From Sideroxydans sp. (GTDB lineage Bacteria > Pseudomonadota > Gammaproteobacteria > Burkholderiales > Gallionellaceae), in the NCBI GenBank assembly GCA_011620315.1, contig WOZO01000063.1, forward strand, positions 7,968 through 71,967: 64,000 nt of DNA, written 5' to 3'. Below are positions 4,913 to 47,882 of this stretch, in pieces. Made by a program: the position numbers and the translations under genes. The notes beneath the pieces were generated by a model, which was not told the origin of the DNA, ran no database searches, and saw nothing but the letters and a program-made list of their open reading frames with translations. Every line of letters begins with the position of its first letter. Within the stretch, counting starts at the first letter, position 1.

Positions 4913-6319
4913 TCACGCTCCCAATTCAATGCCGGGCAGGGACGACTTCGCCCACGGCGCAGGTTTGCGCACGCCCGGCCACACCGGACTCTGTATCGTC
5001 AGCGCCAGTTGCCGCGCCAGTTCCACCATGCCGCTGTAACCCTCGTAACCGAATTCGCGTTCCTGATTGATGTCGAGGAAAGGGATGCGCGCCTTGAGCG
5101 CGGTGTACATGTTGCGACCGCCCGCGATGAGGATGTCCGCTTCGTATTCCTTCACCACGCCGAGCAGCGCCTTGGGGCTGCCGTCGGTGATCATCTTGGT
5201 CTTCTCGCCCATGATCTCGCGGATGCGCGCTTTGTCTTCCTCGGTGGATTTACTGGTGCCGGTGGCAACGACTTCCATGCCCAGGTCTTGCAGCGCGGAG
5301 ACGATGGACCACGACTTCACGCCGCCGGTGTATAGCAACACGCGCTTGCCGCGCAGGCGTTCGCGCCACGGTTCCAGCTCGGCGTTGATCTTCGCCTCTT
5401 CCCTCGCGATCATCGCTTCGGTGCGTTCGGTCAGAGAAGGATCGTTCAGCAGCTTGGCAAAATCGCGGAAGGCATTCGAGGTATCGGTCACGCCGTAGAA
5501 GCTGCCTTCGAAGAACGGCACCTTGTGATCGGTTTGCAGTTTGCGCGCGATGTTGAGCAAGGCTTTCGCGCACACCACCATGCTGGCTTCGGCGCGGTGC
5601 ATGGTCTGCACTTCGTGGAAGCGCGCATCGCCGGACAAGGTGCACAGGATGCGCAGCCCCAGTTCGTCGAACAACGGTGCCACGTTCCAGAACTCACCCG
5701 CGATGTTGTATTCGCCGATCAGGTTCACATCGTGCACGGTGATGCCTGGGCGCTGCAATTCATCAGGCACCGGCAAAGGTTCGCCCGTACCCACCACATA
5801 TTTGAACATCGCCTCACCCGCGATGCGGTTGCCCAGATTCTTGGTGCCGTAGAAACCGGCACAGTCCACCGGCACCACCGGCACGCCGGTCTTCTCGGCA
5901 GCGGCCTTGCACACCGCGCCGATGTCATCGCCGGTCAGCGCGGGCACGCAGGTGTTGTAGACGAACACCGCCTTGGGGGAATAGGAATCGACCGCCTGCT
6001 TGATTGCATGGAACAAACGCTTCTCGCCGCGCCCCATGATCACGTCCTGCTCGGTCAGATCGGTGGTCATACCGATGCGATACAAAGTCGGCCCGGAAGA
6101 GCGCGTGCCGCGGTTGTCCCACGAACTGCCCGCACAAGCGATCGGCCCGTGCACGATATGCGCGACGTCGGCGATAGGCAGCAAAGCGATCTGCGCCCCG
6201 TCGAACGAGCAGCCGCCCGCCGTCGCCCCGGGCTTGGGTCGCGCACAACCGGATTTCTCCTTCTTGTTATGCGCGCAGGCCGGTTCGTTCAGCAGTTCGG
6301 CGATGTCCTTGGCTTGCAT
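4913..6319 (-). CDS. nifE: Nitrogenase FeMo-co scaffold NifE
   Basis: [55 protein letters not shown]. Confidence 0.97.
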
Positions 6320-12953: not shown

Positions 12954-13919
12954 TCAAACGGAATACGGTGCCGCCGCCCAGCCTTGCACCAATGCCGCTT
13001 CGGTGTCCGGCAGATAGCTGAAGCCGGCTTCCAGATCGCGCACGACGGCGTAGGCGACGGCGGGCGGGGTGATGGTGTTGGAGACGAGGTGGAAATACCA
13101 GGCGGAGGGATAGCCTGCCGCGCGGTCGAAGGCTTGCAACTGGTGCGACATCTCGACGCCGGAGAGTTCGGCGTTCCAGTGGAACGATTTGAGTTCGCGC
13201 GCGTGGCGCGACACCAGCGAAGCGGTTGCCACCGGGTTGCGGTAGCGGTCCAGATGTTCGCGCAGGGCGACGATCCAGTGGTCGCTGAAGTGGCCGCGCG
13301 TGGCGGCGCTGCTGTGCGACCATTCTTTGAGCAGGCGCGGCAGGCCGTTGCCGCGCCCGGTCGCCAGCCCTGCGCGCGCGACGGTCTGCTTCATGTCGAG
13401 CAGGCGGCGGAATTTGTAACGCGGCGAACCCACGGCCTGCCCTTCCAGCAGCAGCGGTGAGATGGGGTCGATGAGTTCCTGCATGTCTTCGGGCAATGCG
13501 TCCGGATCGATCAGTTCGCGGTCCAGCACTTCCTGCAGTTCTTCCACTTCCAGTTGCATGAAATCGGCGGGGGCCGGGCCGTAGGCGCAGACGAAATAAT
13601 GTGTGCGGCCGGAATGGCGGGTGACTTGCAGACCCTTGTCGAGATAGCGCTCGACCAGTTCTGCCATGTCGCCATCGCAAGCTTCCAGCTCGCTGCGCGC
13701 CCAGCGTTCCAGTTCGTCCGAGAGCCGGTCGCCGTTCGGCGCGATGACGCCGCCCGGGCGATACCAGCCGCCACGGTTCAGCGCGTATTCAAAGGTGCAG
13801 CCGGGATGGATGCGGTTGGCGATCTCCAGCAACCCGGCGTGATGCGGGCGCGGCGACAACGCTTCGATCTTGCGCGCGAGTTCCTGCAGCGCTGTTTCGT
13901 CGGGCGTCATGATCGTCAT
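12954..13919 (-). CDS. Hypothetical protein co-transcribed with lrv
   Basis: 321-aa ORF with 4-nt overlap with lrv, host-like codon use. Confidence 0.75.
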   Translation of the reverse strand: MTIMTPDETALQELARKIEALSPRPHHAGLLEIANRIHPGCTFEYALNRGGWYRPGGVIAPNGDRLSDELERWARSELEACDGDMAELVERYLDKGLQVTRHSGRTHYFVCAYGPAPADFMQLEVEELQEVLDRELIDPDALPEDMQELIDPISPLLLEGQAVGSPRYKFRRLLDMKQTVARAGLATGRGNGLPRLLKEWSHSSAATRGHFSDHWIVALREHLDRYRNPVATASLVSRHARELKSFHWNAELSGVEMSHQLQAFDRAAGYPSAWYFHLVSNTITPPAVAYAVVRDLEAGFSYLPDTEAALVQGWAAAPYSV

Positions 13920-14677
13920 TTCTCTGCTCCCATCAGGTATTCGTTCAATCGCTGGCGCACCACGGTGCGCACGTCAGGCTCGGCATCGTCCGCTAGTTCG
14001 GCGATAGACTCAAGCGGTGCATGCTCCGCCGCGCGCAGCCGCACCACCCAGTCCTCGTCGTGCAGCATCTTTACGGCATCGTCCGCCAGTACGCGCTCGG
14101 CCACGATGCGCCGCACTTCCACATCTTCATCCTGCGCCATGCGCCCCAGCGCGAACGGCGGCAAACGGCGCGCCACCACCTTGCGCACTTCGCGCTCCTC
14201 GTCGTGCGCCATCTTCGGCAACTGCCCGTGCGGCAGGCGTTTCGCCACCTGCATGCGCACCAGATAATCTTCGTCGTTCTGCAATACGCCCAGTTCTTCC
14301 GGTACCAGGCGATCCGCCGCCGTCATGCGCACTTCGCGGTCGGTATCGTGCAGATAGTCCCCCAGCCCGTCGATGGGCAGGCGCATCACCATCACGCGCC
14401 GCACCACCTCGTCCTCGTCGCGCGCCAGCGGGCGCAAGGCTGCCAGCGGCGCATGTTGCGCGGCGATGGCGCGCCTTTCCCAGAAAGCATCGTGCAGATA
14501 GCCTTCGGCGAATTCCTTGTTGCGCCGCAAAAAGCGGTCGATCTGCCGCCCGCTGTGCGCGGTCACGCAGATGTCGCCCGGCACACAGCGGCCTTCCGCC
14601 AGTAGCGCGCGGTGCGGACAAGTCGCGCAATCCGCGAGGGCGGACGGCGGCGCTGCCTCCGGGTGACTTTCTGGCAT
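13916..14677 (-). CDS. lrv: 4Fe-4S-binding leucine-rich-variant (LRV) repeat protein
   Basis: CATCPHR...RCVPGDIC...SGRQIDRF plus repeated D.D..VR..VA.RL units; ATG 14677. Confidence 0.88.
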   Translation of the reverse strand: MPESHPEAAPPSALADCATCPHRALLAEGRCVPGDICVTAHSGRQIDRFLRRNKEFAEGYLHDAFWERRAIAAQHAPLAALRPLARDEDEVVRRVMVMRLPIDGLGDYLHDTDREVRMTAADRLVPEELGVLQNDEDYLVRMQVAKRLPHGQLPKMAHDEEREVRKVVARRLPPFALGRMAQDEDVEVRRIVAERVLADDAVKMLHDEDWVVRLRAAEHAPLESIAELADDAEPDVRTVVRQRLNEYLMGAEK

Positions 14678-14716
14678 GTGGGTCCCTGCTTTCAAAATAG
14701 ACATCGCCTGAGTGAC

Positions 14717-14732
14717 TGCAACACCCGTGCCA
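14717..14732 (-). promoter_or_regulatory. sigma54 promoter of lrv operon
   Basis: Minus strand TGGCAC-GGGTG-TTGCA. Confidence 0.85.
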
Positions 14733-14806
14733 ATCTGCTGCGCGGGTAATTTATCAAGCCATGACAGAGGGTTAGCGATTCTGACTGCGGGATACAAACA
14801 GGAGTT

Positions 14807-14822
14807 TGTAGCGATTGCGACA
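14807..14822. promoter_or_regulatory. NifA UAS
   Basis: TGT-AGCGATTGCG-ACA. Confidence 0.75.
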
Positions 14823-14855
14823 AAACAAATCGTTGGGTGGAGCCCTTCCTGCATC

Positions 14856-15431: not shown

Positions 15432-16502
15432 CTACATCAGCGCCACGCTCTTCACCTGTGCGCACACGTACATCCCCGCGACCAGGCCCAGATGGTCGCG
15501 CGAACGGCGCGTGATGCGCGACAGCAGCATATGCGACTCGCCCACCTGCATGCGCACGATCACCTTGTCCGGCCCCTCGTCGCGTATCTCTTCGATGCGC
15601 GCATTGAGGATGTTGTTGATGCTGGAGCCTTGCGGCGCCTGCGTGGCGATGCTCACGTCGCGTGCCAGCACGCGGGCACGCACGCGATAGCCTGCCGTCT
15701 GATCCACCTTGCCCACCCACAGGTGGCCGCCGGGGAAATCGAGCTGCGTCAGATGATAGGCCTCGTCGTGCCGCGCCACCGACGCTTCGATCACCGCGCC
15801 GGCGTCGTCGAAATGCGCGATGGGCAGGTCCAGCCGCGCCAGCGTCTCACCCAGCGCGCCGCTGGCGATGACCTTGCCCTGCTGCAGCAATACCAGATGG
15901 TCGGCCAGCCGCGCCACCTCGTCCATCGCATGGCTGACGTACAGAACGGGGATCTGCAGTTCGCGGTGCAGGCGTTCGAGGTAGGGCAGGATCTCCTGCT
16001 TGCTCTGCGTGTCGAGCGCGGACAGCGGCTCGTCCATCAGCAGCAGTTCGGGGCTGACCAGCAGCGCGCGGCCGATGGCGACGCGCTGGCGCTCACCGCC
16101 GGACAGGCTGGCCGGATCGCCGCGCCCGATGATGCGGTCCAGCCCCAGCCATTCGATCACTTGTTCCGGTTGCACGCGGCGTAGCGCAGGCGCGATGCGC
16201 CGGTAGCCGTATTCCAGATTGGCACGCACCGACAGGTGCGGGAACAGGCTGGCCTCCTGGAACACATAGCCCAGCGGCCGCTTGTGCACCGGCATGAAGG
16301 TCGTCTCGTTCTGCCACGGCTCGCCGTTCACGCGCAGCCAGCCCTGCGCGCGCTCCAGTCCGGCGATGCAGCGCAGCAGCGTGGTCTTGCCGGAACCGGA
16401 GGAGCCGAACAATGCGGTGACGCCGAGCGGCGGCGCGCTGAACTGGGCATCCAGTTCGAAGCTACCCTGCTGCATCTTGAGGTGTACGCGCAGCCAGCTC
16501 AT
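15432..16502 (-). CDS. modC: Molybdate ABC transporter ATPase
   Basis: [31 protein letters not shown]-terminal TOBE; ATG 16502. Confidence 0.95.
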
Positions 16503-17176
16503 CGCGCCCCCTTGGACCAATTGCCGCCCACGCGATACAGTCCGACCAGCACGAGGAAGGAGAACAGCACCATGCCGCCCGACAGCCAATGTGCCTCGCT
16601 GTATTCCATCGCCTCGACGTGGGTGTAGATGGCGACCGAGAGCACCTGCGTCTCGCCGGGGATGCTGCCGCCCAACATCAGCACCACGCCGAACTCGCCG
16701 ACCGTGTGCGCGAAGGCCAGGATGATGGCGGTGAGGAAACCGGGACGCGCCAATGGCAAGGCGACACTGATGAATCGATCCCACGGTGTCGCGCGCAGGG
16801 TAGCCGCCACTTCCAGCGGACGTTTGCCCATCGCCTCGAACGCGTTCTGTATCGGCTGCACCGCGAACGGCAGAGAGAACAGCACCGAGCCGACCACCAG
16901 TCCGGCGAAGGTGAACGGCAGTGCACCGATGCCGAGCGCGCGCGTCAATTCACCCACCGCGCCCTGCGGCCCCATCAGCAACAGCAGATAGAAGCCCAGC
17001 ACCGTCGGCGGCAGTACCAGCGGCAGCGCCACCAGCGCCGACACCAGTCCCTTGTACCAGCTGCGGCTGTGCGCCAGCCACCAGGCCAGCGGCGTGGCGA
17101 TGCACAGCAACACAAGCGTGGTGAGGCTCGCCAGCTTGAGTGTGAGTGTTACGGCTTGCAGGTCTTCGGGTGTCAC
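16499..17176 (-). CDS. modB: Molybdate ABC transporter permease
   Basis: [37 protein letters not shown]. Confidence 0.95.
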
Positions 17177-17204: not shown

Positions 17205-17384
17205 GTCATTGATGGAACTACTAGCCAATCCACTAAGCCAGCAAGCTGGCAAGTGGCTGGTTATCCCGCGCAGGCGGGAATCCAGCCATCAAAACAATTC
17301 CGCGAAGCGGACAACATGTTCTGGTTATGTCCCGCTGCGCGGGGAATGTTGAACCACTGGATTCCCGCCTGCGCGGGAATGACG
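17205..17384. repeat. REP doublet (GTCATTCCCGCGCAGGCGGGAATCCA family) interrupted by a 49-nt hairpin element at 17216-17264
   Basis: gtcatt[insert]cccgcgcaggcgggaatccag ... ctggattcccgcctgcgcgggaatgac. Confidence 0.85.
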
Positions 17385-18153: not shown

Positions 18154-18975
18154 TTATGCTGTAACTGCCAAGATTATGTGCGACGCCTTGATCAACGCCG
18201 CGGCTTTGACCCCTTCCTTCAATCCCAGTGATTTGATGCTGTCGTTGGTGACGATGGCGGCCACGCTCTTGCCGCCCGCCAGCTCGATGATGACCTCGCC
18301 GTTCACCGCGCCTTCCTGACAACGCACCACCGTGCCGTGCAACTCGTTGCGCGCGCTGGTCTTGAAACCTTCCGAGGTGGTCACGATCACCCACGGCGCT
18401 TTCACCAGCGCATACGCCTCGCCACCCACCTTCAAACCAAGATGCTGCACGCTCTCGTTGGTGATCACCGCCGCCAGCGTGTCGCCGCTACCAATATCCA
18501 TCACCACTTCCGCGTTGATCTGTCCCAGCTTGATGCTCTTGATAGTGCCGAGGAACTGGTTACGCGCACTCGTCTTCATGTCGAATCTCCTGATTAGTTG
18601 GTAGTACTCATCGAAGTCGTCCATCACCTCGGCCAGCCGCTTGAGCACCTGCTCGCGCTCCTGCTCCAGCCGCCGATAGGCGCCCGCCACCCGGCGGCCG
18701 TAGGTGGTCAGCGTGGTGCCGCCGCCTTTAGCTCCGCCGGTCTTGCGCTCCACCAGGGGTTGCTCGGAAAGATTGTTGATGCTGTCCACCGCTTCCCACG
18801 CCGCCTTGTAGCTCATGCCCATGGCACTCGCCGCCGCCGAAATGGAGCCGGTCGCATCGATACGTTCCAGCAATTCCAGATGGTCCCAGCGCCGCCCGCG
18901 GGCGATCTTCAGTTTGGAGACAACGCTGCCGTCGGTCTGCTTCGCTGCTTTGCTTGCTGCTGCTGTCTGAGCCAT
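18154..18975 (-). CDS. modE: Molybdate-responsive regulator (wHTH + 2 TOBE)
   Basis: GSISAAASAMGMSYKAAWEAV, TGGAKGGGTTLT, KTSARNQF, TSARNEL. Confidence 0.93.
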   Translation of the reverse strand: MAQTAAASKAAKQTDGSVVSKLKIARGRRWDHLELLERIDATGSISAAASAMGMSYKAAWEAVDSINNLSEQPLVERKTGGAKGGGTTLTTYGRRVAGAYRRLEQEREQVLKRLAEVMDDFDEYYQLIRRFDMKTSARNQFLGTIKSIKLGQINAEVVMDIGSGDTLAAVITNESVQHLGLKVGGEAYALVKAPWVIVTTSEGFKTSARNELHGTVVRCQEGAVNGEVIIELAGGKSVAAIVTNDSIKSLGLKEGVKAAALIKASHIILAVTA

Positions 18976-19107
18976 GTTGTCCTCACTCGTAATCGAAAAT
19001 CTCGCCTAGCGACTCGTTCGCCCTTTCTCCCGCTTGCGGGAGAAAGTTGGAAAGGGGGAAGCGGGCATGGCAAGCCTCAAAATCATCCGTTTCACATGTG
19101 CCATGCC

Positions 19108-19131
19108 CGTTATCGCTTGCGCCACCTAACG
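19108..19131. promoter_or_regulatory. ModE box (imperfect) at the modE transcription start
   Basis: CGTTATCG-N8-ACCTAACG. Confidence 0.6.
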
Positions 19132-19134
19132 TCA

Positions 19135-19150
19135 TGCAAGAGCGATGCCA
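19135..19150 (-). promoter_or_regulatory. sigma54 promoter of modEABC
   Basis: Minus strand TGGCAT-CGCTC-TTGCA. Confidence 0.8.
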
Positions 19151-19237
19151 GCCTGCCATCGCGCCGCATAACCCCATCCCGTACGGGGTTCCCTCATATC
19201 GACCTGCCACCTGCACAGCGTTATGTCGGGCTTCAGC

Positions 19238-19253
19238 TGTAGGCTTTTGCACA
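19238..19253. promoter_or_regulatory. NifA UAS between two divergent sigma54 promoters
   Basis: TGT-AGGCTTTTGC-ACA. Confidence 0.75.
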
Positions 19254-19265
19254 ATTTGGCGCGTT

Positions 19266-19289
19266 CGTTACAACCCAAATTACATAACG
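19266..19289. promoter_or_regulatory. ModE box
   Basis: CGTTACAA-N8-ACATAACG. Confidence 0.65.
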
Positions 19290-19338
19290 CTACCCAGCCT
19301 TATCCCTCAATCCCACGCACAACAGCCTTCAATGTGAT

Positions 19339-19354
19339 TGGCACGCCACTTGCT
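19339..19354 (+). promoter_or_regulatory. sigma54 promoter divergent from modE
   Basis: TGGCAC-GCCAC-TTGCT. Confidence 0.85.
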
Positions 19355-19366
19355 AAAACGCTGTTG

Positions 19367-19390
19367 CGTTATGTCGCAATTTACATAACG
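19367..19390. promoter_or_regulatory. ModE box (perfect palindrome)
   Basis: CGTTATGT-N8-ACATAACG. Confidence 0.8.
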
Positions 19391-19418
19391 AAATCCAATC
19401 ACACAACAGGAGTATGAA

Positions 19419-19559
19419 ATGAACGCAAAACGCTGCCCCCCCCCTGACGGTCGCCACCCGGCCATGGCCGACAACGGCAACATCACTATCTACGGCAGCG
19501 CGCTGCCGGGCCGTTACGACACGCCGTACAAAATCATCACGCGCAAGCTGGACAACTAA
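19419..19559 (+). pseudogene. Internally deleted Gram-negative porin remnant
   Basis: RBS ACAGGAG; MNAKR...PAMA|DNGNITIYG joined to GRYDTPYKIITRKLD, both resembling betaproteobacterial porin motifs. Confidence 0.55.
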
Positions 19560-19610
19560 CGTGTCAGTCCCATGGGTTCGATGAACCCAGATTGTCCGTT
19601 AGAAAAATCA

Positions 19611-19695
19611 CGTCATTCCGGCGCAGGCCGGAATCATGGCGTTGTCCGCTGCGCGGCGTATTTTTCATCGCCGGATACCGGCCTGACCGGAGGTC
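19611..19695. repeat. REP doublet (GTCATTCCGGCGCAGGCCGGAATC variant), degenerate
   Basis: cgtcattccggcgcaggccggaatc ... ggataccggcctgaccgga. Confidence 0.65.
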
Positions 19696-19909
19696 AGTCT
19701 GTCCTGAGTTGATCGAAGGGCCGGTATGACGGCCTAATGGACGATCCGGGATGAAGGCAGGATTTCGCCGGGCTATTCCCTGAATATCAGGCGGTAATTT
19801 GCGGCGTTCTAAATAATGACTTGGCAGTGCAAATCCCCCCCCCCGCATTAGCATCGTCAATCGCTACTGTTTTTGAGTAAGGCGATGTATTAGAAGCATT
19901 CCTTCAGCA

Positions 19910-22627
19910 TCACCAGGTCAGCCAACGCCGCACAAAGCGATTGTCGCGGCGGATCAGCCATCTTCTCCACTCGTCGCCCAGCAGAATCACAGCGGCGAAC
20001 GGCAAGACCAGCGACACCTCGAACCAGCCTATTGGCGCGGTGCCGAAGAAGGGTTGCAGGTAGGGCGCGCGCGAGATCGCGGCCACCAGTCCCAGCTCCG
20101 CCGCGATGCCCACCCAAATCAGTTTGTTGCGGAAGATGCCGGCGGACAGCATGCTTTCGCGGCGCGTGCGGCAGATCAGCACATTGGGTATCTGGCAGAT
20201 CACCACCGCCGCGAAGAATGCCGTGACGGCGGTGCGGTACAGCAGGCTGTCCGTCGGCAATTCCGCGCCCCATGTCCAGTCGCCCCGATGCAGCACTACA
20301 AAAAATACAAAGAACCCGGCGGCCGCCTGGATCATGCCGACGATGCCGTAGCTCCTGCCCAGCAGCGGCCAGGTGAGCAGTCTTTCGTCGCGGCGGCGCG
20401 GCGGCTGTTTCATCACATCATGCTCCGGCAGCTCGCGTCCCAATCCCAGCGCGGGCAGCAGGTCGGTGCCCAGGTCGATACTGAGGATCAGCACCACGGT
20501 CAACGCCAGCGGCGCGTCGATGGCGACAAAGGCGATGAAGGGCAATATCTCGGGCACGTTGCTGGTGAGGATGTAGGCGATGAACTTCTTGATGTTGGAG
20601 AAGACGGTGCGGCCTTCTTCGATGGCGTGCACGATGGTGGCGAAGTTGTCGTCCATCAGCACCATGTCTGCCGCTTCCTTCGCCACCTCGGTGCCGGATA
20701 GTCCCATCGCCACGCCCATGTCGGCGTTCTTCAGCGCGGGCGCGTCGTTCACGCCGTCGCCGGTGACGGTGACGATCTCGCCCTTCTTCTGCAGCGCTTT
20801 GACGATCTGCAGCTTCTGCAACGGCGTGGTGCGCGCGAACACCAGTTCGCGGCTATCCAGCAAGTCGGACAGTTCTTCCTTGCTCATCGTCTGCAACTGC
20901 TCGCCCACGACCACCCGCCCGTCGCCGGTGAACAGGCCGACCTGGCGGGCGATGGATTCGGCGGTGGTGTGGTAGTCGCCGGTGATCATGAACACGCGGA
21001 TTCCCGCGCTGCGACATTTGTCCACCGCATCGGCGATCTCGGGGCGCGGCGGATCGAGCATGCCGACCAGCCCCAGATAGATGAAGCCGTCTTCGCTGGC
21101 TGCCTCGGCATCGGTGGTCTTGTAAGCCAGCGCCAGCACGCGTTCGCCGCGCGCGGCCAGCACTTCGTACAACTCCATAGCTTTGCTGTGCGCTTCCTCG
21201 TCGAACGCGACCTGCTCGCCCCGCTGCATACGATGCGTGCATTTTTTGAGAACGATCTCCGGCGCACCTTTCATGTAGGCGATGTTGGGCTGGCCCGCCG
21301 CGCCCTGGTGCGTGGTGATCATGCGCTTGGTGGCGGAATCGAACGGGCTTTCGTGCAGACGCGGGAAACGTTCCGCCAGATCGCCTATTGCGTGCAGACG
21401 CTGCGCCAGCACCAGCAGCGCGCCCTCGGTGGGGTCGCCGAGGTAATGATGGTCGGTGAGGCGCGCGTTGTTGCACAACACCATGGCCGTCCATGCATCG
21501 CTGAAGCCTTCCGCCTGCGCCAGCCCGCTCTGGTAGGCAGACCACACGCGCAGTCCCAGCACCAGCGTGGCGACCCGCATCTGGTTCTGCGTGATGGTGC
21601 CGGTCTTGTCGGTGCAGATCACGGTGGTCGAGCCCAGTGTCTCCACCGCTTCCAGATTCTTGATCAGCGCGTTCTTCTTCGCCATGCGTTTGGAGGCCAT
21701 GGTCAGCGCCAGCGTTACCGTGGGCAGCAAGCCTTCCGGCACGTTGGCGACGATGATGCCGATGGCGAAGATCAGGCTGTCGGTGAAGGGATTGCCGAGC
21801 AGCACACTGAGCGCGAAGAACAGCAGACCGAGCGCGATGGCGATGGCGGAAATGACGCGGATAAAATGGCGCAGCTCTTTGCGGATCGGCGTGTCCACCG
21901 TGTCCGCCTCTTTGGTGAGCTGCACGATGCGGCCGATCTGCGTGTTCATGCCGGTGCCATACACCAGCGCGCGACCGTTGCCGCTTTGCACCAGCGTGCC
22001 GGAGAACACCATGTTGCGGCTCTCCAGCAGATTGTCGTGGGTACAGGCCAGCTTGCGCAACTGCGGTTCGCTCTCGCCGGTCAGCGAAGAATGGTCGACC
22101 TTGAGCCGGTTCACTTCCAGCAAGCGCCCGTCGGCCGGCACGCGGTCGCCTTCTTGCAGCAGGATCACATCGCCCGGCACCACCAACCGCGCTTCGATAC
22201 GCGCGACCTGCCCGTCGCGCCGGACCGTGATCATCTGCGGCAGCATGTTGCGGAAGCTCTCCATGATGCGTTCACTCTCGCGCTCCTGCACGTAGGTGAA
22301 CAGCGCGTTGAGCAGCACCACTGCCAGCAGCGCGACGCCGATGTAGAAGTTGCCTTCGCCCGGTCGGAGGTAATCGGCAAAGAACGCCAGCGAGGAACCG
22401 GCAATGAGCAGCAGCGCAAAGAAGTTGGTGAACTGGCGCAGGAATTTGACGAACTCCGGCGTCTCCTTGCGCACGCGCAATTCGTTGCCGCCGAACTCGG
22501 CCAGACGGCGCGCCGCCTCGGCCGCGCTCAGCCCTTCCCCGCTGCAATGCAGGCGCTGCTGCAAGGCCTCCAGCGGGATGCGATGCTGGTCGGCGGGCAC
22601 TGCCTTTGCATCAGTATGGTTCATCAC
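19910..22627 (-). CDS. Type II cation-transporting P-type ATPase (Na/K-ATPase-like motifs)
   Basis: TGES, IIVANVPEGLL, ICTDKTGT, MITGDY, TGDGVNDAPALK, ILSIDLGTD. Confidence 0.93.
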   Translation of the reverse strand: MMNHTDAKAVPADQHRIPLEALQQRLHCSGEGLSAAEAARRLAEFGGNELRVRKETPEFVKFLRQFTNFFALLLIAGSSLAFFADYLRPGEGNFYIGVALLAVVLLNALFTYVQERESERIMESFRNMLPQMITVRRDGQVARIEARLVVPGDVILLQEGDRVPADGRLLEVNRLKVDHSSLTGESEPQLRKLACTHDNLLESRNMVFSGTLVQSGNGRALVYGTGMNTQIGRIVQLTKEADTVDTPIRKELRHFIRVISAIAIALGLLFFALSVLLGNPFTDSLIFAIGIIVANVPEGLLPTVTLALTMASKRMAKKNALIKNLEAVETLGSTTVICTDKTGTITQNQMRVATLVLGLRVWSAYQSGLAQAEGFSDAWTAMVLCNNARLTDHHYLGDPTEGALLVLAQRLHAIGDLAERFPRLHESPFDSATKRMITTHQGAAGQPNIAYMKGAPEIVLKKCTHRMQRGEQVAFDEEAHSKAMELYEVLAARGERVLALAYKTTDAEAASEDGFIYLGLVGMLDPPRPEIADAVDKCRSAGIRVFMITGDYHTTAESIARQVGLFTGDGRVVVGEQLQTMSKEELSDLLDSRELVFARTTPLQKLQIVKALQKKGEIVTVTGDGVNDAPALKNADMGVAMGLSGTEVAKEAADMVLMDDNFATIVHAIEEGRTVFSNIKKFIAYILTSNVPEILPFIAFVAIDAPLALTVVLILSIDLGTDLLPALGLGRELPEHDVMKQPPRRRDERLLTWPLLGRSYGIVGMIQAAAGFFVFFVVLHRGDWTWGAELPTDSLLYRTAVTAFFAAVVICQIPNVLICRTRRESMLSAGIFRNKLIWVGIAAELGLVAAISRAPYLQPFFGTAPIGWFEVSLVLPFAAVILLGDEWRRWLIRRDNRFVRRWLTW

Positions 22628-29406: not shown

Positions 29407-29513
29407 GCCCGCAAGGGATACCACACTATTCTTGTAAGCCATTGTGCGCACGGGATATTCATCTGCATGCCCGCTCCTACCCTCGCCCCCTGCATTGCCT
29501 GTGCTGTGGTTTT

Positions 29514-29562
29514 TGTCGCCTTCGTCACAAGCTTTCGCGCATGTCATGTGCAATTTGCAACA
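29514..29562. promoter_or_regulatory. Two tandem NifA UAS
   Basis: TGT-CGCCTTCGTC-ACA (29514-29529) and TGT-GCAATTTGCA-ACA (29547-29562). Confidence 0.75.
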
Positions 29563-29625
29563 GGTAAGCCCACAACACCAACGCAGGCACCCAACAAAAC
29601 AACGAGTTAAGCGTGCCGATATTTC

Positions 29626-29641
29626 AGGCACGCGGCTTGCT
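29626..29641 (+). promoter_or_regulatory. sigma54 promoter of nifB operon
   Basis: AGGCAC-GCGGC-TTGCT. Confidence 0.8.
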
Positions 29642-29674
29642 GATAGTCGGGCGGATCTTATCGGAGGACATATT

Positions 29675-31171
29675 GTGGAACTACCAGTCTTGAACAACAC
29701 AGCAAGCGAAGCCGCCAAGGGCGGATGTTCCGAGAGATCGTGCGGCTCGACCGACGACCAGATGAACCACCTGCCGGATAGCATCCGCGACAAGGTGAAG
29801 AACCATCCCTGCTATTCCGAAGAAGCACACCATTATTTTGCGCGCATGCACGTCGCCGTCGCACCGGCCTGCAACATCCAGTGCAACTACTGCAACCGCA
29901 AATACGATTGCTCCAACGAGTCGCGCCCCGGCGTGGTGTCCGAGGTGCTCAACCCAGTGCAAGCGGTGAAGAAGGTGATGGCCGTCGCCGCCACCATCCC
30001 GCAGATGACAGTGCTGGGCATCGCCGGTCCCGGCGACGCGCTGGCCAATCCGCAGCGCACCTTCGACACCTTCCGCATGCTGAACGAGCAAGCACCGGAC
30101 ATCAAACTGTGCGTCTCCACCAACGGCCTTGCCTTGCCGGAGAACGTCGAAGAGATGTGCCAATACAACATCGACCACGTGACCATCACCATCAACTGTG
30201 TGGACCCGGACGTGGGCGCGAAGATCTATCCGTGGATCTTCTGGAACAACAAGCGCATCAAGGGCCGCGAGGGCGCAGCCATCCTCATAGCGCAGCAACA
30301 GAAGGGGCTGGAGATGCTGGTCGCCAAGGGCGTGCTGGTGAAAGTGAACTCGGTGATGATCCCCGGCGTGAACGACAAGCATCTGGAAGAAGTGTCGCGC
30401 ATCGTGAAGGCCAAGGGTGCGTTCCTGCACAACGTGATGCCACTGATCTCGGAAGAGGAACACGGCACGTTCTACGGCCTCACCGGCCAGCGCGGTCCGA
30501 CCAACGAAGAACTGCAGGAATTGCAGGACTCGTGTGCGGGTGACATGAACATGATGCGTCACTGCCGCCAGTGCCGCGCCGATGCGGTGGGCCTGCTGGG
30601 CGAAGACCGCGGTGCGGAATTCACGCTGGACAAGATCGAGGAGATGGACATCGATTACGCCGAGGCGATGAAGATGCGCGCCGAAGTACATGCGGCCATC
30701 AACGAAGAACTGGAAAGCAAACACAAGGCCAAGGAAACCAAGCTGGTCAGCATCGAAGGTCTGAAGAAGGAAGTGACCCGTCCGGTATTGATGGCGGTCG
30801 CCACCAAGGGCGGCGGCGTCATCAACGAACACTTCGGTCATGCCGGCGAGTTCCTGATCTATGAAGCATCGAGCAACGGCGTGCGCTTCATCGGCCACCG
30901 CAAGACCACACCGTATTGCGAAGGTGGCGACACCTGCGGCGACGGCGAGAGCGCACTGGATGTGACCATCCGCGAACTCTCGGGCTGCGAAGTGGTGCTG
31001 TGCAGCAAGGTCGGCTACGAACCTTGGGGCCCACTGGAAGCCGCAGGCATCCAGCCCAACGGCGAACACGCGATGGAAGCCATCGAAGATGCAGTGCTGG
31101 CTGTGTATGAAGAGATGCGTGCCGCAGGCAAGCTGGAAGCCAAGGCAGACACCGCGCAAAAAGCGGCATAA
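29675..31171 (+). CDS. nifB: Radical SAM FeMo-co biosynthesis protein NifB (with NifX-like domain)
   Basis: HPCYSEEAH, CNIQCNYCNRKYDCSNESRPG, MRHCRQCRADAVG, INEHFGHA; GTG start after GGAGGA. Confidence 0.97.
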   Translation: MELPVLNNTASEAAKGGCSERSCGSTDDQMNHLPDSIRDKVKNHPCYSEEAHHYFARMHVAVAPACNIQCNYCNRKYDCSNESRPGVVSEVLNPVQAVKKVMAVAATIPQMTVLGIAGPGDALANPQRTFDTFRMLNEQAPDIKLCVSTNGLALPENVEEMCQYNIDHVTITINCVDPDVGAKIYPWIFWNNKRIKGREGAAILIAQQQKGLEMLVAKGVLVKVNSVMIPGVNDKHLEEVSRIVKAKGAFLHNVMPLISEEEHGTFYGLTGQRGPTNEELQELQDSCAGDMNMMRHCRQCRADAVGLLGEDRGAEFTLDKIEEMDIDYAEAMKMRAEVHAAINEELESKHKAKETKLVSIEGLKKEVTRPVLMAVATKGGGVINEHFGHAGEFLIYEASSNGVRFIGHRKTTPYCEGGDTCGDGESALDVTIRELSGCEVVLCSKVGYEPWGPLEAAGIQPNGEHAMEAIEDAVLAVYEEMRAAGKLEAKADTAQKAA

Positions 31172-33824: not shown

Positions 33825-34538
33825 ATGATCATCATGCAGCCCACCGCCATGCACACCACCAAGACACCACCGCAGCCGGGCTCCCCCCTCTCTAACTCTG
33901 GTGAAACTACTAGCCATTCGACTAAGCCAGCAAGCTGGCAAGTCGCTGGTTATCTCCCGCAAGCGGGAGAAAGGACGAACGAGAAAGGCAATAGTCGATC
34001 CCCGGGCCTGTATGCGGAGTTGATGTCGCATGCGGCTGGGCTGCCCAATGATGAACTATTCGCACAACTGATCGCCAACCAGATCGCCGGCCTCGGCGCA
34101 TTGCCGCCCGGACTGGGGCTGGATGAAGAAGTGTTCGCGGCGCTGCTGTCGCGTCACTTCCCCAGCATGCAACTGGTGATACGTCGCAACGCGAATGCGT
34201 CCGACGAACGCGAACTGGAACACGAAGACGTGCGCGCGCTGATCCTAGAACATCGCGCCAACCTCGACGTCTCCGAAGTATGGATGGCAGAGATCGTCAC
34301 CACCGCCTGCATGGCGAGCGACCATCTGTGGCAAGACCTCGGCCTGTGGTCGCGCAAATACCTGACCCAGATGATGACGCAGAACTTCCCCACGCTGGCC
34401 GCGAAGAACAGCAAAGACATGAAGTGGAAGAAGTTCCTCTACAAGCAACTGTGCGAGAAAGAAGAGATCAGCATCTGCCGCTCACCGAGTTGCGAAGTGT
34501 GCATCGACTATCAGAAATGCTTCGGGCCGGAGGAGTGA
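33825..34538 (+). CDS. nifQ: Molybdenum donor NifQ (N-terminus extended by repeat DNA; start uncertain)
   Basis: DHLWQDLGL.SR..L..MM..NFP.LAAKN..DMKWKKFLYKQLC....CRSPSCEVC.DY..CFGPE. Confidence 0.93.
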   Translation: MIIMQPTAMHTTKTPPQPGSPLSNSGETTSHSTKPASWQVAGYLPQAGERTNEKGNSRSPGLYAELMSHAAGLPNDELFAQLIANQIAGLGALPPGLGLDEEVFAALLSRHFPSMQLVIRRNANASDERELEHEDVRALILEHRANLDVSEVWMAEIVTTACMASDHLWQDLGLWSRKYLTQMMTQNFPTLAAKNSKDMKWKKFLYKQLCEKEEISICRSPSCEVCIDYQKCFGPEE

Positions 34539-34540
34539 CC

Positions 34541-34888
34541 CGTCATACCGGCGCAGGCCGGTATCCAGCCATACAAATACCCTGCGAAGCAGACAAAACC
34601 ATGATGACGTCCCGCTTGCGAGAACTTATTGATCAACTTGATACCAGTCCCGTAGGATGGGTGGCCCCCGTTCGGGGACAAGAGCAACGCGATACCCATC
34701 AATCGCCATCTGCAAAACGATGGGTATCGCTGCGCTCCTCCCATCCTACAACTCATTGGCCGTCATACCGGCGCAGGCCGGTATCCAGTCAAAACATGCA
34801 TCCTGCAAAGCAGGCAAAACCGGTGTTGTCCCGCTGCGCGGGGAATTTTTCTATCATCTGGATTCCGGCCTGCGCCGGAATGACGGCG
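34541..34888. repeat. Composite REP cluster (GTCAT..CCGGCGCAGGCCGG copies and a GTAGGATGGG doublet)
   Basis: Two gtcataccggcgcaggccggtatccag copies, inverse ctggattccggcctgcgccggaatgac, and gtaggatgggtgg ... ccatcctac. Confidence 0.85.
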
Positions 34889-34894
34889 GTTTGA

Positions 34895-35773
34895 ATGTCT
34901 GCTTCTGACCGCGCCATCGCCGCCTACCTCGGCCTCGCCATCGGCGATGCGCTGGGCGCGACGGTGGAGTTCATGACGCCGCGCGAGATCAAAGCCCAAT
35001 ACGGCGTGCATGACAAACTGATCGGCGGCGGCTGGTTGCATCTGAAACCGGGACAGGTCACCGACGACACCACCATGTCACTCGCACTCGGCACCTCCAT
35101 CCTCAAAGCAGGCAAGGTCGATGCGCATGCCGCCGCGCAAGCCTTCGACGACTGGATGCGCGGCAAGCCGGTGGACATCGGCAACACCGTGCGGCGCAAC
35201 CTGCTGCAATTCCGCAAGACCGGCAATCCAGAAGCCCCCTACTCCGACCACGACGCAGGCAACGGCGCCGCGATGCGCGTGCTGCCCGTCGCACTCGCCA
35301 CCTTCGGCCAGAGCGAAGACGAAGTGCGCGTCGCCTGCCGCGCACAAGCGCATGTCACCCATCATTGCACCCTGTCGGATGCGGCCTGCGAATGTCTGGT
35401 GCTGATGGTGCAAGACGCACTGCGCGGCGCAAGCAAGAACGACCTGCTGCACAAACACGCCCACCCGCTCGCACTGCAACATCCCTCCTTCAAGTTCCGC
35501 GCCGTCAAACCCGCCGCCAACCCCAGCGGATACATCGCCGACACCATGCCCGCCGTGTTCCAGAGTTTCTTCGATACCGACGATCTGCACGACTGTCTGG
35601 TCGATGTAGTCAATCGCGGCGGCGATGCCGACACCACCGGCGCCATCGCGGGCATGCTGGCCGGTGCGATGTATGGCACAGAGGCTATTCCGGGTGATTG
35701 GATGAAGGGACTGGACGCAGAGACGCGCACCTTGTGTGAGATGCAGGCGCAGGCGCTGCTGCACACAAATTAG
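34895..35773 (+). CDS. draG: ADP-ribosyl-[dinitrogenase reductase] hydrolase
   Basis: GLAIGDALGATVEFMT, GQVTDDTTMSL, KPVDIGNTVRR, GNGAAMR, NRGGDADTTGAIAG. Confidence 0.95.
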   Translation: MSASDRAIAAYLGLAIGDALGATVEFMTPREIKAQYGVHDKLIGGGWLHLKPGQVTDDTTMSLALGTSILKAGKVDAHAAAQAFDDWMRGKPVDIGNTVRRNLLQFRKTGNPEAPYSDHDAGNGAAMRVLPVALATFGQSEDEVRVACRAQAHVTHHCTLSDAACECLVLMVQDALRGASKNDLLHKHAHPLALQHPSFKFRAVKPAANPSGYIADTMPAVFQSFFDTDDLHDCLVDVVNRGGDADTTGAIAGMLAGAMYGTEAIPGDWMKGLDAETRTLCEMQAQALLHTN

Positions 35774-43933: not shown

Positions 43934-45097
43934 CTAGTGCGCCAGCACGCCGGGCTCGCTACGCCCGCCGTGATGCTGGCCGATGAACTTCCGGTAGATG
44001 AACAACAACTCCTGATCGGCAGGCGAGCGTTTGGCACGCTCGGCGAAACTGCGGATATCCGGCAGCAGTGCGCGCGCCTCGGCCTGGCTCAGGTTCAATC
44101 CCATGCTGGCGTAGGCGGCGATGATGCCGTGCGCGCCGGAATGCTTGCCCACCACCAGTTTGTGTGACCGACCGACTTCGACCGGGTCGTAACCTTGATA
44201 GGTGTCCGGATCCTTTAGCAGGCCGTCCACATGGATACCGGCCTCGTGCGTGAACACCCCCTCGCCGGTGACACTCTTCTGCCAGGGGATGGGGCGGCCC
44301 GATGCCGCAGCAACGATTTGCGACAGCACGGGAAAATGCGTGAGATCGATACCGGTGTCCATCGCGTAGAGCTTCTTCAGGCCCAGCGCGACTTCTTCCA
44401 GCGGCGCGTTGCCCGCACGTTCGCCCAGTCCGTTCACCGTGGTGTTGATGTGCGTGGCACCGGCCAGCGCGGCGGCCAGACTGTTGGCGGTGGCCAGCCC
44501 CAGATCGTCATGCGCATGCATCTCGATCTCGATGTCGCACACACTGCGTATCGCCGCGATCACCTTGTGCACGCCGAACGGCTCCATCACCCCAAGCGTG
44601 TCGGCGAAGCGCAGACGCTGCGCACCGGCGGCCTGCGCCGCCTCGGCCACCTGCAGCATGAATTCCGGATCGGCACGCGAGGCATCCTCGCAGCCGACGA
44701 TGATCTCCATCCCCGTGTGGTACGCGCGCGGCACCACTTCATAGATGGTGTCGATCACCCACTGGCGATCCCGCTTGAATTTTTTTTTCAGGTGGATGTC
44801 CGACACCGGGATGGACAGGTCGAGCATCTGCACATCGACCTGTTCGCAGATGTTCACATCCTCCATGCACATGCGGTTCCATGCGATCAGCTTCGCCTTG
44901 AGCCCCAACGATGCGACGGCATTGATACTGTCACGCTCCACCTCGCCCATCGCCGGGATGCCGACTTCCAGCTCCGGCACGCCCAGCGCATCGAGCTGGC
45001 GCGCGATGTCCAGCTTTTCCTCCAGCGTGAACGCCACCCCGGCGGTCTGTTCGCCGTCGCGCAGGGTGGTGTCGTCGATGGTGATGGTGCGGGACAT
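43934..45097 (-). CDS. nifV: Homocitrate synthase
   Basis: [53 protein letters not shown]. Confidence 0.95.
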
Positions 45098-45107
45098 GAT
45101 GTATGCC

Positions 45108-46322
45108 TTATGCGTACGTCGGCGCGAACGCTTTTTCCGGTTCGACAGCGGGGCCGTCGCCATCCCAGTACGGCGACAGCTTGCGCAGTTGCGCGATGAT
45201 CTCCGGCACCACGGCGATGACGCGATCCACTTCGGCTTCGGTGCTGTAACGCGACAGCGAGAAACGCACCGTGCCGTGTGCGGCGGTGTAGGGGATGCCC
45301 ATGGCGCGCATCACGTGCGACGGCTCCAGCGAACCAGAGGTGCAGGCGGAGCCGCTCGATGCGGCGATGCCGAACTTGTTCAGCAGCAACAGAATCGCCT
45401 CGCCCTCGATGAACTCGAACGCGATGTTGCTGGTGTTGGGCAAACGGTTGCCCGGATCACCGGTGACAAAAGAGCGCGGCACCTTGGCCAGTATCCCGGC
45501 TTCCAGCTTGTCGCGCAGGCGCGCGACTTCGGTGTTCTCGAAGGCCATCGCCTCCATCGCCATCTCGGCGGCTTTGCCCAGACCTACGATAGACGTGGTG
45601 TTCTCGGTGCCGGCGCGGCGGCCGCGCTCCTGGTGCCCGCCGCGCAGCAGCGGACGGAAGCGCACGCCGCGCTTCAGGTACAGCACGCCCACGCCCTTGG
45701 GCGCATGCAGCTTGTGGCCGGATACCGACAGCATGTCTATCTTGGTGTCCTTTAAATTCAGAATTACCTTGCCCGCGGCCTGCACCGCGTCGGTGTGGAA
45801 CATCGCGCCGGCGGCGTTGGCCAGTTCGGCCATCTCCACGACCGGGAAAAATGTTCCGGTCTCGTTGTTCGCCCACATCACCGACACGACAGCAGTCTGG
45901 TCGCTGAGCAGATTTTTGTATTCGCCCAGGTCGATGCGGCCTTTGCCGTCGACCTTGAGGTAATGCACCTTGTAGCCGTCTTTTTCCAGCCAGGCGCACA
46001 GTGTCAGCACGGCCGGGTGCTCGACGGTGGTGGTGATGATCTCTTTGCGTTCCGGCTGTGCTTTCAGTGCGGACAGGATGGCAGTGGAATCCGACTCGGT
46101 ACCGCAGGAGGTGAAGATGATCTCGGAGTCGTGCTCCGCGCCGAGCAACTCCTGCACCTGCATGCGCGCCTTCTTGATGGCGAGGCCAACCTTGTTGCCG
46201 AAGCTGTGCATCGACGACGGATTGCCGAACTGTTCGGTGAAGTAAGGCAACATCGCCTCAACCACCTGCTCGTCCACACGGGTGGTGGCATTGTTGTCGA
46301 AATAGATGCCTTCCATGTTCAT
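45108..46322 (-). CDS. nifS: Cysteine desulfurase
   Basis: [34 protein letters not shown]. Confidence 0.96.
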
Positions 46323-47756: not shown

Positions 47757-47772
47757 TGCAAGCTGTGTGCCA
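47757..47772 (-). promoter_or_regulatory. sigma54 promoter of iscA-nifUSV operon
   Basis: Minus strand TGGCAC-ACAGC-TTGCA. Confidence 0.85.
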
Positions 47773-47866
47773 GCCCGTGCCAAAAACTCAATTCACTGTT
47801 TTATATGGAAGTTATTTTGCGGATACGCTCTACCCAGCTGTGTGCAACAAGACGGAGTGGAGGGCT

Positions 47867-47882
47867 TGTAGGTTTTGCGACA
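47867..47882. promoter_or_regulatory. NifA UAS
   Basis: TGT-AGGTTTTGCG-ACA. Confidence 0.75.

Follow-up and report, generated by a model that had tools for sequence, protein, structure and literature searches.

A porin pseudogene beside modE in a Sideroxydans-like bacterium points to a porin clade apparently under nitrogen and molybdenum control

The crossing of the outer membrane by molybdate is usually left to 'general porins'. PhoE of Escherichia coli and OprP and OprO of Pseudomonas aeruginosa are anion porins induced by phosphate starvation, and PhoE and OprP are co-regulated with the Pst importer. On the regulatory side, the sequence TGT-N10-ACA is the classical binding site of NifA. 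Here we describe the remains of a porin gene at positions 19419-19559 of a 64,000-nucleotide stretch of contig WOZO01000063.1 from Sideroxydans sp.; this whole stretch is called the window, and its source is a Sideroxydans-like member of the Gallionellaceae. The remains are very probably those of a 372-amino-acid, 16-stranded porin of the Porin_4 type that was ancestrally controlled, together with modEABC, by sigma54 and a ModE box. They apparently point to a porin clade not described so far, which would be switched on with nitrogen fixation and off by molybdenum (Mo).

The ModABC-like system morAB(C) of Rhodobacter capsulatus is strictly NifA-dependent, with RpoN, and is repressed by the ModE-like proteins MopA and MopB through Mo-boxes (PMC6925177). 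The consensus of E. coli ModE is a dyad of 24 nucleotides (nt) with the same layout as the boxes found in the window (quoted in PMC2700814). An outer-membrane acquisition of molybdate has been proposed for P. aeruginosa IcmP with a ModA secreted by the type VI secretion system (as cited in PMC11734730), the only outer-membrane molybdate route encountered in the searchable literature. No description of a ModE- or NifA-regulated porin was found in the searchable full-text literature, regulon databases and subscription journals lying outside that search, and the porins treated in PMC545781 are under Fur and not part of the ModE regulon.

The open reading frame (ORF) at 19419-19559 (plus strand, 46 codons, MNAKRCPPPDGRHPAMADNGNITIYGSALPGRYDTPYKIITRKLDN) lies in a 934-bp gap with modE on one side and a convergent P-type cation ATPase gene (19910-22627, minus strand) on the other. 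An original prediction, made before any homology search, had reported this ORF, read its peptide as pieces of a porin, and advised a look for a full-length porin divergent from modE in related diazotrophs. The first two points have held, and such porins were found. The ORF is present, and when its peptide was searched by tblastn against 80 related mod loci two separate pieces matched porins of the relatives: residues 14-28 correspond to the last part of the signal peptide with the beginning of the mature protein, and residues 25-46 to an internal stretch (up to E = 3e-9). In the relatives the two pieces are 270 nt apart within one ORF of 370-410 amino acids divergent from modE; in DNA, both are 90% identical to the porin gene of locus L001 and 88-90% identical to the intact gene of contig L091. 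Pfam assigned the 46-residue product to no family, Porin_4 and Porin_1 included, even at E <= 10, and the homology is taken from the tblastn comparison because the peptide is too short and broken for Pfam.

At least 10 related loci carry a full-length Porin_4 porin (370-410 amino acids) at this position, divergent from modE; among them are L003, L006, L008, L010, L011, L012, L026, L038 and L046, plus L091, the closest relative, which has the same arrangement. A protein search identified the closest intact ortholog as P0019 (372 amino acids), encoded on L091. This contig is 90% identical to window positions 19108-19497 and has the same promoter, ribosome-binding site and first five codons, MNAKR. 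The intact ortholog of L006 matches Pfam Porin_4 at 5.7e-39, and the AlphaFold model of P0019 (pLDDT 87, pTM 0.82) is a 16-strand barrel whose sequence ends in HMF and whose best structural match is the anion-selective porin Omp32 (TM 0.77/0.87). In a neighbour-joining tree, all 11 porins with an established mod context fall in one clade, including P0050 at only 52% identity, whereas porins of similar identity encoded beside slt/cca, which are housekeeping copies, lie in the other clade.

Comparison with L091 maps four lesions in the window. The first two wreck the signal-peptide region (19419-19469). An 11-nt deletion lies within the present run of nine C (C9, 19436-19444; breakpoint near 19441/19442), and a 1-nt deletion follows 15 nt (19442-19456) downstream, near 19456/19457; together they convert the hydrophobic core HLPLLAALLAAT into CPPPDGRH and restore the frame. 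The +1 frame over 19445-19459 reads LTVAT, and the earlier suggestion that this motif is recoverable by a 1-nt shift near the C9 run agrees in detail with the deletions seen against L091. The remnant, reading MNAKRCPPPDGRHPAMA where the ortholog reads MNAKRHLPLLAALLAATPAMA, has no Sec signal peptide with a hydrophobic core. The mature porin start DNGNITIYG, the beginning of strand 1, follows at 19470-19497 (90% identical to nt 335-375 of the L001 porin gene) and ends in a TACGGCA junction. Here the third lesion, an in-frame deletion of 237 nt (79 codons), has occurred between 7-nt TACGGCA repeats (19491-19497 in the window), which flank the deleted stretch at both ends in L001 and L091.

Beyond this junction the internal fragment YGSALPGRYDTPYKIITRKLDN (19491-19556) equals residues 108-129 of the 372-residue ortholog, that is strand 6 and the start of loop 3. 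It is identical to porins of the mod-linked clade at 15-20 of 22 positions, against 8-16 of 22 for other porins, and the remnant bears the signature of that clade (YG, RYD, LDN). The fourth lesion is the loss of all homology past GACAACT at 19557, after codon 129 of the ortholog: the stop codon (19557-19559) stands exactly at this 3' breakpoint, and the porins of the relatives run on with FxDSIADNR and about 240 more residues. What is retained, about residues 18-30 and 108-129 of 372, is far from a complete 16-strand barrel with a C-terminal Phe, and no other remnant of a porin, receptor, binding protein, di-haem protein or second modA was found in the window. With intact syntenic homologues in at least 10 loci and four mapped lesions, the ORF is a porin pseudogene, a relic of a family member and not itself a member; its product cannot be exported or form a pore. 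The layout of L001, in which a receptor gene follows the promoter and a porin lies further on, had suggested a different origin, a deletion of about 4.7 kb that would have joined the beginning of the receptor gene to the distal porin; this was rejected because in L091 the same promoter is immediately followed by a porin gene that likewise begins with MNAKR.

The regulatory DNA in front of the wrecked gene is intact, and its three elements were found where the original prediction had placed them. A sigma54-type -24/-12 promoter (TGGCACGCCACTTGCT, 19339-19354, plus strand) agrees with the consensus TGGCAC-N5-TTGCW at 12 of 12 positions, and from the usual sigma54 spacing transcription is predicted to start near 19365. 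Directly 3' of this predicted start lies a palindrome that fits the ModE-box pattern (CGTTATGTCGCAATTTACATAACG, 19367-19390; consensus of the relatives CGTTATGCACTAATTTACATAAC), followed by a ribosome-binding site, AGGAG (19408-19412, plus strand), six nt 5' of the ATG, a feature kept in relatives as AGGAG-N5/6-ATG. The window was aligned with 24 related intergenic regions, and L091 was added for a rescoring (26 sequences); this gives the pattern TGGCACGCC-N-TTTGCT for the promoter and box halves CGTTATGCAC and TACATAAC just past the predicted start, then AGGAG and ATG. Wherever the first divergent gene codes for a porin or a TonB-dependent receptor, or is the ghost described here, the plus-strand sigma54 promoter is present (19 of 19 sequences); it is missing from the six aligned loci with neither porin nor receptor in first place (L014, L015, L017, L021, L024 and L029). 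In closeness to the family consensus, the elements of the window equal those of L091.

A mirror image of this layout faces modE. The sigma54-type element on the minus strand (TGGCATCGCTCTTGCA, 19135-19150) is kept as GCAAAAGCGATGCCA in 23 of 26 sequences, and the ModE box over the predicted start of that promoter (CGTTATCGCTTGCGCCACCTAACG, 19108-19131) as CGTTAT-N12-TAACG in 21 of 24 aligned relatives. Common to both divergent promoters is a NifA-type upstream activator site, TGT-N10-ACA (19238-19253), invariant in 26 of 26 sequences while its spacer letters vary. Its distance from the plus -24 element is 97-102 bp in each of the 19 sequences that have the plus promoter, and its distance from the minus -24 element is mostly 104-108 bp (26 sequences); in the window the distances are 101 bp to the porin promoter and 103 bp to the modE promoter. 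A central ModE box (CGTTACAACCCAAATTACATAACG, 19266-19289) lies between the activator site and the plus promoter; its half CGTTACAACC is kept across the 24 relatives of the alignment, L006 and L011 each differing by a single base, and the box is retained even in L002, which has no porin. Within about 290 bp, this arrangement combines a pair of sigma54 promoters with a single activator site and three ModE boxes.

These motifs are not chance occurrences, since their matches far exceed expectation: the ModE-box pattern CGnTAT-N12-ATAnCG occurs three times in 64 kb, always in this intergenic region (0.11 expected), and the sigma54 pattern four times (0.28 expected). A sigma70 scan of 18900-20000 returned no promoter-like sites. 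Elsewhere in the window, a strong sigma54 site is paired with TGT-N10-ACA 79-112 bp upstream at nifB (sigma54 site at 29626, NifA-type promoter 29514-29641), at nifUSV (47772; 47757-47882) and at the gene of an LRV Fe-S protein (14732; 14717-14822). For modEABC itself, transcription appears to begin at a sigma54 promoter whose predicted start is covered by a ModE box, an arrangement kept in 22 of the 24 Gallionellaceae loci compared; this would place the molybdate importer under NifA-type activation and Mo autorepression. A multi-copy repeat (18998-19071), inserted downstream of the modE promoter and ahead of the modE start codon, makes the leader about 100 nt longer than in relatives; the repeat matches 33953-33983 and loci L040, L042 and L052, and shows raised contig depth in metagenomes.

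The evidence from sequence, so far as it goes, bears out the regulatory reading. From motif identity, gene neighbourhood and analogy, we infer that NifA would activate the porin gene, Mo-bound ModE would repress it, and the porin would serve molybdate uptake. The ancestral state is the one seen in relatives, a porin gene divergent from modE-modABC with ModE boxes at both predicted start regions and a third midway. Under nitrogen-fixing conditions, NifA or a NifA-like activator would fire both divergent promoters, and with plentiful molybdate Mo-bound ModE on the boxes would shut both off. The porin would then be made together with ModABC only when nitrogenase needs molybdenum and little is available, and by analogy with PhoE and OprP its role would likely be a faster passage of molybdate through the outer membrane. 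In the lineage of the window, two small deletions ruined the signal peptide, the 237-nt deletion removed strands 1-5, and a rearrangement took the last two-thirds of the porin gene along with the neighbouring second modA.

The position is not always taken by a porin of this clade. At 14 loci the same sigma54/ModE-box promoter drives a TonB-dependent receptor (among them L001, L004, L005, L009, L016, L018, L019, L022, L023, L036 and L052). In L023 (1078-5676) the receptor is followed by a periplasmic binding protein (SBP_bac_6/8), a di-haem oxidoreductase (Pfam DHOR) and, further downstream, a porin; in some receptor loci a further copy of the promoter precedes the distal porin. This receptor cassette is a candidate Mo- or metallophore-uptake system. 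Other loci carry unrelated porin types divergent from modE: a Porin_O_P porin of the OprO/P family with an N-terminal coiled coil in L072 (about 5300-5790), a 446-residue Porin_4 in L050 and L055, and a Porin_4 of divergent sequence in L048 (4653-5765). In L048, L055 and L072 the stretch from modE to the porin gene contains ModE boxes; a pattern scan of L050 found none, only box-like sequences being visible, and the modE-porin intergenic regions of all four contain no sigma54 or NifA-type motif.

These occupants bear directly on a second, rather unlikely reading, according to which the ancestral gene encoded an ordinary diffusion porin with no link to molybdate, either a mere neighbour of modE or one induced with nitrogen fixation for another solute. 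Such a reading would fit the databases, which label every named member of the family simply 'porin', the basic pore-lining residues common to Porin_4 and Omp32, the frequent loss of the gene, and the close paralogues (about 50% identity) that are housekeeping porins elsewhere in the genome. It would leave unexplained, however, why a ModE box lies just past the porin's own predicted start and is kept wherever a porin or receptor is present, why the mod-linked porins form a separate clade, why unrelated porin types, one of the anion-specific OprO/P family, stand behind ModE boxes at the same position, and why the porin gives way to a TonB-dependent receptor cassette behind the same promoter in other loci. 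The separate clade, the unrelated porin types at modE and the alternating cassette all point towards a link with Mo. On L088 (4001-9149), P0049, a porin from the housekeeping clade, is encoded about 2 kb away from genes for a tupA-like binding protein (PBP_like_2/PBP_like) and a permease, a neighbourhood that hints at a possible tungstate link.

Loss of the mod-linked porin has been recurrent, since the window, L002 and L035 lost it independently. In the sister lineage L002, labelled S. lithotrophicus, porin and promoter are cleanly gone: the terminator of modA2 abuts the central ModE box (5690-5990) and the activator site is degenerate (TGC, with a 9-nt spacer). L035 (5362-5688) holds a separately truncated copy of which about 100 N-terminal codons are left. 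Several observations weigh against a NifA- and ModE-controlled molybdate porin as the origin of the remnant. The porin is dispensable, as it is often absent, lost or replaced by the TonB-dependent receptor. No nifA or rpoN was identified among the window ORFs scanned, and the activator is named from its motif alone. The basic pore residues, compared with Omp32, are common to the family and none is particular to the mod clade. The runs that hold the remnant sequence are DNA metagenomes, with no RNA runs among them. Finally, a perfect promoter stands beside a wrecked gene, for which recent decay would be the simplest explanation.

With a promoter, ModE box and ribosome-binding site that have stayed perfect, the locus may continue to be transcribed and give rise to a cytoplasmic peptide of 46 residues. 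This invites a third reading, quite improbable in our view, in which the remnant has been put to new use as a small Mo- and nitrogen-responsive transcript of about 300 nt (roughly 19365-19668) or as a functional peptide. It is favoured by the hairpins that stand behind the ORF, in the DNA that has replaced the distal part of the porin gene. In L091, L006 and L046 a terminator comes after the porin, and beyond it a convergent second modA. Both are gone from the window, and 19560-19909 contains instead repetitive extragenic palindromic (REP)-like repeats (19584-19760), strong hairpins with a U-run (19602-19668) 3' of the ORF, and the 3' end of the convergent P-type ATPase gene; the stretch shows a fold of -59 kcal/mol (z = -3.3), includes a terminator-like site and holds no porin remnant. 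The REP-like repeats, with palindromic core ACGTCATTCCGGCGCAGGCCGGAATC and raised contig depth in metagenomes, recur in intergenic spacers of the mod and nif regions (17271-17384, 34541-34605, 34761-34885) and in many related loci. A second homopolymer, C11 at 19838-19848, lies just past the ATPase stop codon.

A new function would also accord with regulatory elements that at least match those of L091, whose gene is intact, with a frame that stayed open through three indels (11 and 1 nt, then 237 nt), and with the identical sequence found in four metagenome runs. The 46-codon ORF occurs, however, in this one lineage only, and the chance of the frame being preserved, about 1 in 9, is unremarkable. 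L002 lost promoter and gene, hence neither is needed for the mod locus to persist. Non-conservative replacements (V to A, L to P) are present in the kept fragments, which is what relaxed selection would lead one to expect. The remnant has no match in Pfam or Rfam; over the whole window Rfam returned one tRNA only and nothing around the remnant.

That the truncations reflect faulty assembly or binning of a genome with a whole porin gene is barely conceivable: the source is known apparently from metagenomes only and contig L081 departs from the window beyond 20040, but two studies, of an oil field and of soil, provide four metagenome runs whose contigs agree with the window without differences, X1 as a single contig over 18900-19613 and X3 over 19176-19496, including the signal-peptide deletions and reaching the junction repeat, L081 and L082 are 100% identical across the remnant, and such exact, independent matches exclude an assembly artefact. 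The junction between remnant and ATPase gene is specific to this lineage, since this P-type ATPase lies near mod in none of 80 related loci. L081, otherwise identical to the window, diverges at 20040 and has a glutathione S-transferase (GST)-like gene instead (L081:1-576); the ATPase junction may be a rearrangement hot spot, or L081 may be chimeric.

The setting of the pseudogene is that of nitrogen fixation, the whole window being a nif region. It includes a nifE/N-like gene (4913-6319), the LRV Fe-S protein gene (13916-14854), nifB (29444-31171), nifQ (33825-34538), draG (34895-35773), nifV (43934-45163) and nifS (45108-46322). The listed nifB start at 29444 is over-extended, because the NifA-type promoter of this gene lies at 29514-29641. 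On the minus strand, modE (18154-18975) encodes the molybdate-responsive regulator and is the first gene of modE-modA-modB-modC. Its product is a full-length ModE, with a DNA-binding domain and two Mop/TOBE domains (Pfam HTH_1 and two TOBE; NCBIfam ModE_repress and Mop models), and shares 84-95% identity with the ModE proteins encoded in metagenome-assembled genomes of Sideroxydans and Gallionella. The mechanically called modC ORF (15432-16784, 450 amino acids) overlaps modB; its true start is probably near 16502, because the gene called on the identical contig L081 encodes 356 amino acids. This layout of nif and mod genes agrees with that of S. lithotrophicus ES-1, in which the mod genes adjoin nifENX (PMC3770913).

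As a dead gene the copy in the window is ordinary, and its value is that of a pointer and of evidence for repeated gain and loss. It leads to a concrete candidate, a porin clade and an alternating receptor cassette behind ModE boxes beside modE in many iron-oxidising betaproteobacteria, which in the diazotrophic members share a NifA-type enhancer site with modEABC, so that one compact divergent region combines nitrogen and metal signals. More tentatively, and with somewhat less than even confidence, we propose that the Gallionellaceae possess a dedicated, ModE-controlled outer-membrane step for molybdate, filled interchangeably by the specialised Porin_4 clade, by other porins, one of the OprO/P type included, or by the cassette of receptor, binding protein and di-haem protein. 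In diazotrophs this step would be wired to NifA through the enhancer shared with modEABC, and the remnant would mark a recent loss, possibly in a Mo-replete habitat. If true, an outer-membrane component would join the mod/nif gene set, and molybdate would have its first defined way through the outer membrane by a porin.

Set against the known systems, the closest functional analogy is with PhoE, OprP and OprO, of which the mod-linked porin would be the molybdate counterpart: in each case a porin is, or is predicted to be, made when an oxyanion is scarce, along with the high-affinity ABC importer of that anion, and the relative L072 even has a porin of the OprO/P family divergent from modE. The phosphate porins are controlled by PhoB, however, whereas ModE repression and sigma54/NifA-type activation are predicted for the mod-linked porin; the clade of the window belongs to Porin_4, not to Porin_1 or Porin_O_P, and the window copy is dead. 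By sequence, the best match of the intact ortholog is Omp32 of Delftia (Comamonas) acidovorans (PDB 1e54, 2fgq; E = 2.6e-12), likewise a 16-strand barrel, and the ortholog retains the basic residues that align with Omp32 R38, R75/76 and R133. The identity is only about 22%, and Omp32 is a major constitutive porin with no tie to a mod locus, whereas the mod-linked clade has longer loops, one of them bearing a conserved Cys pair. P. aeruginosa IcmP resembles the predicted porin as an outer-membrane component proposed for molybdate acquisition, but there a secreted binding protein docks on the outer-membrane protein, with no homology to the proteins considered here and no ModE-box porin.

For the predicted regulation, the closest precedent is morAB of R. 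capsulatus, which combines NifA activation and Mo-box repression, the same double control as is predicted for the porin, although morAB encodes an inner-membrane ABC system and not an outer-membrane porin. The modABC genes of R. capsulatus are NtrC-dependent, whereas modEABC of the window appears to share the NifA-type site. With the ModE-modABC system of E. coli the window has in common the 24-nt dyad CGnTAT...ATAnCG over the start of the repressed operon and a regulator with a helix-turn-helix and a di-Mop/TOBE domain; it differs in its sigma54-type promoters, in having three boxes within one divergent region, and in that modE is the first gene of the mod operon and not a separate divergent unit.

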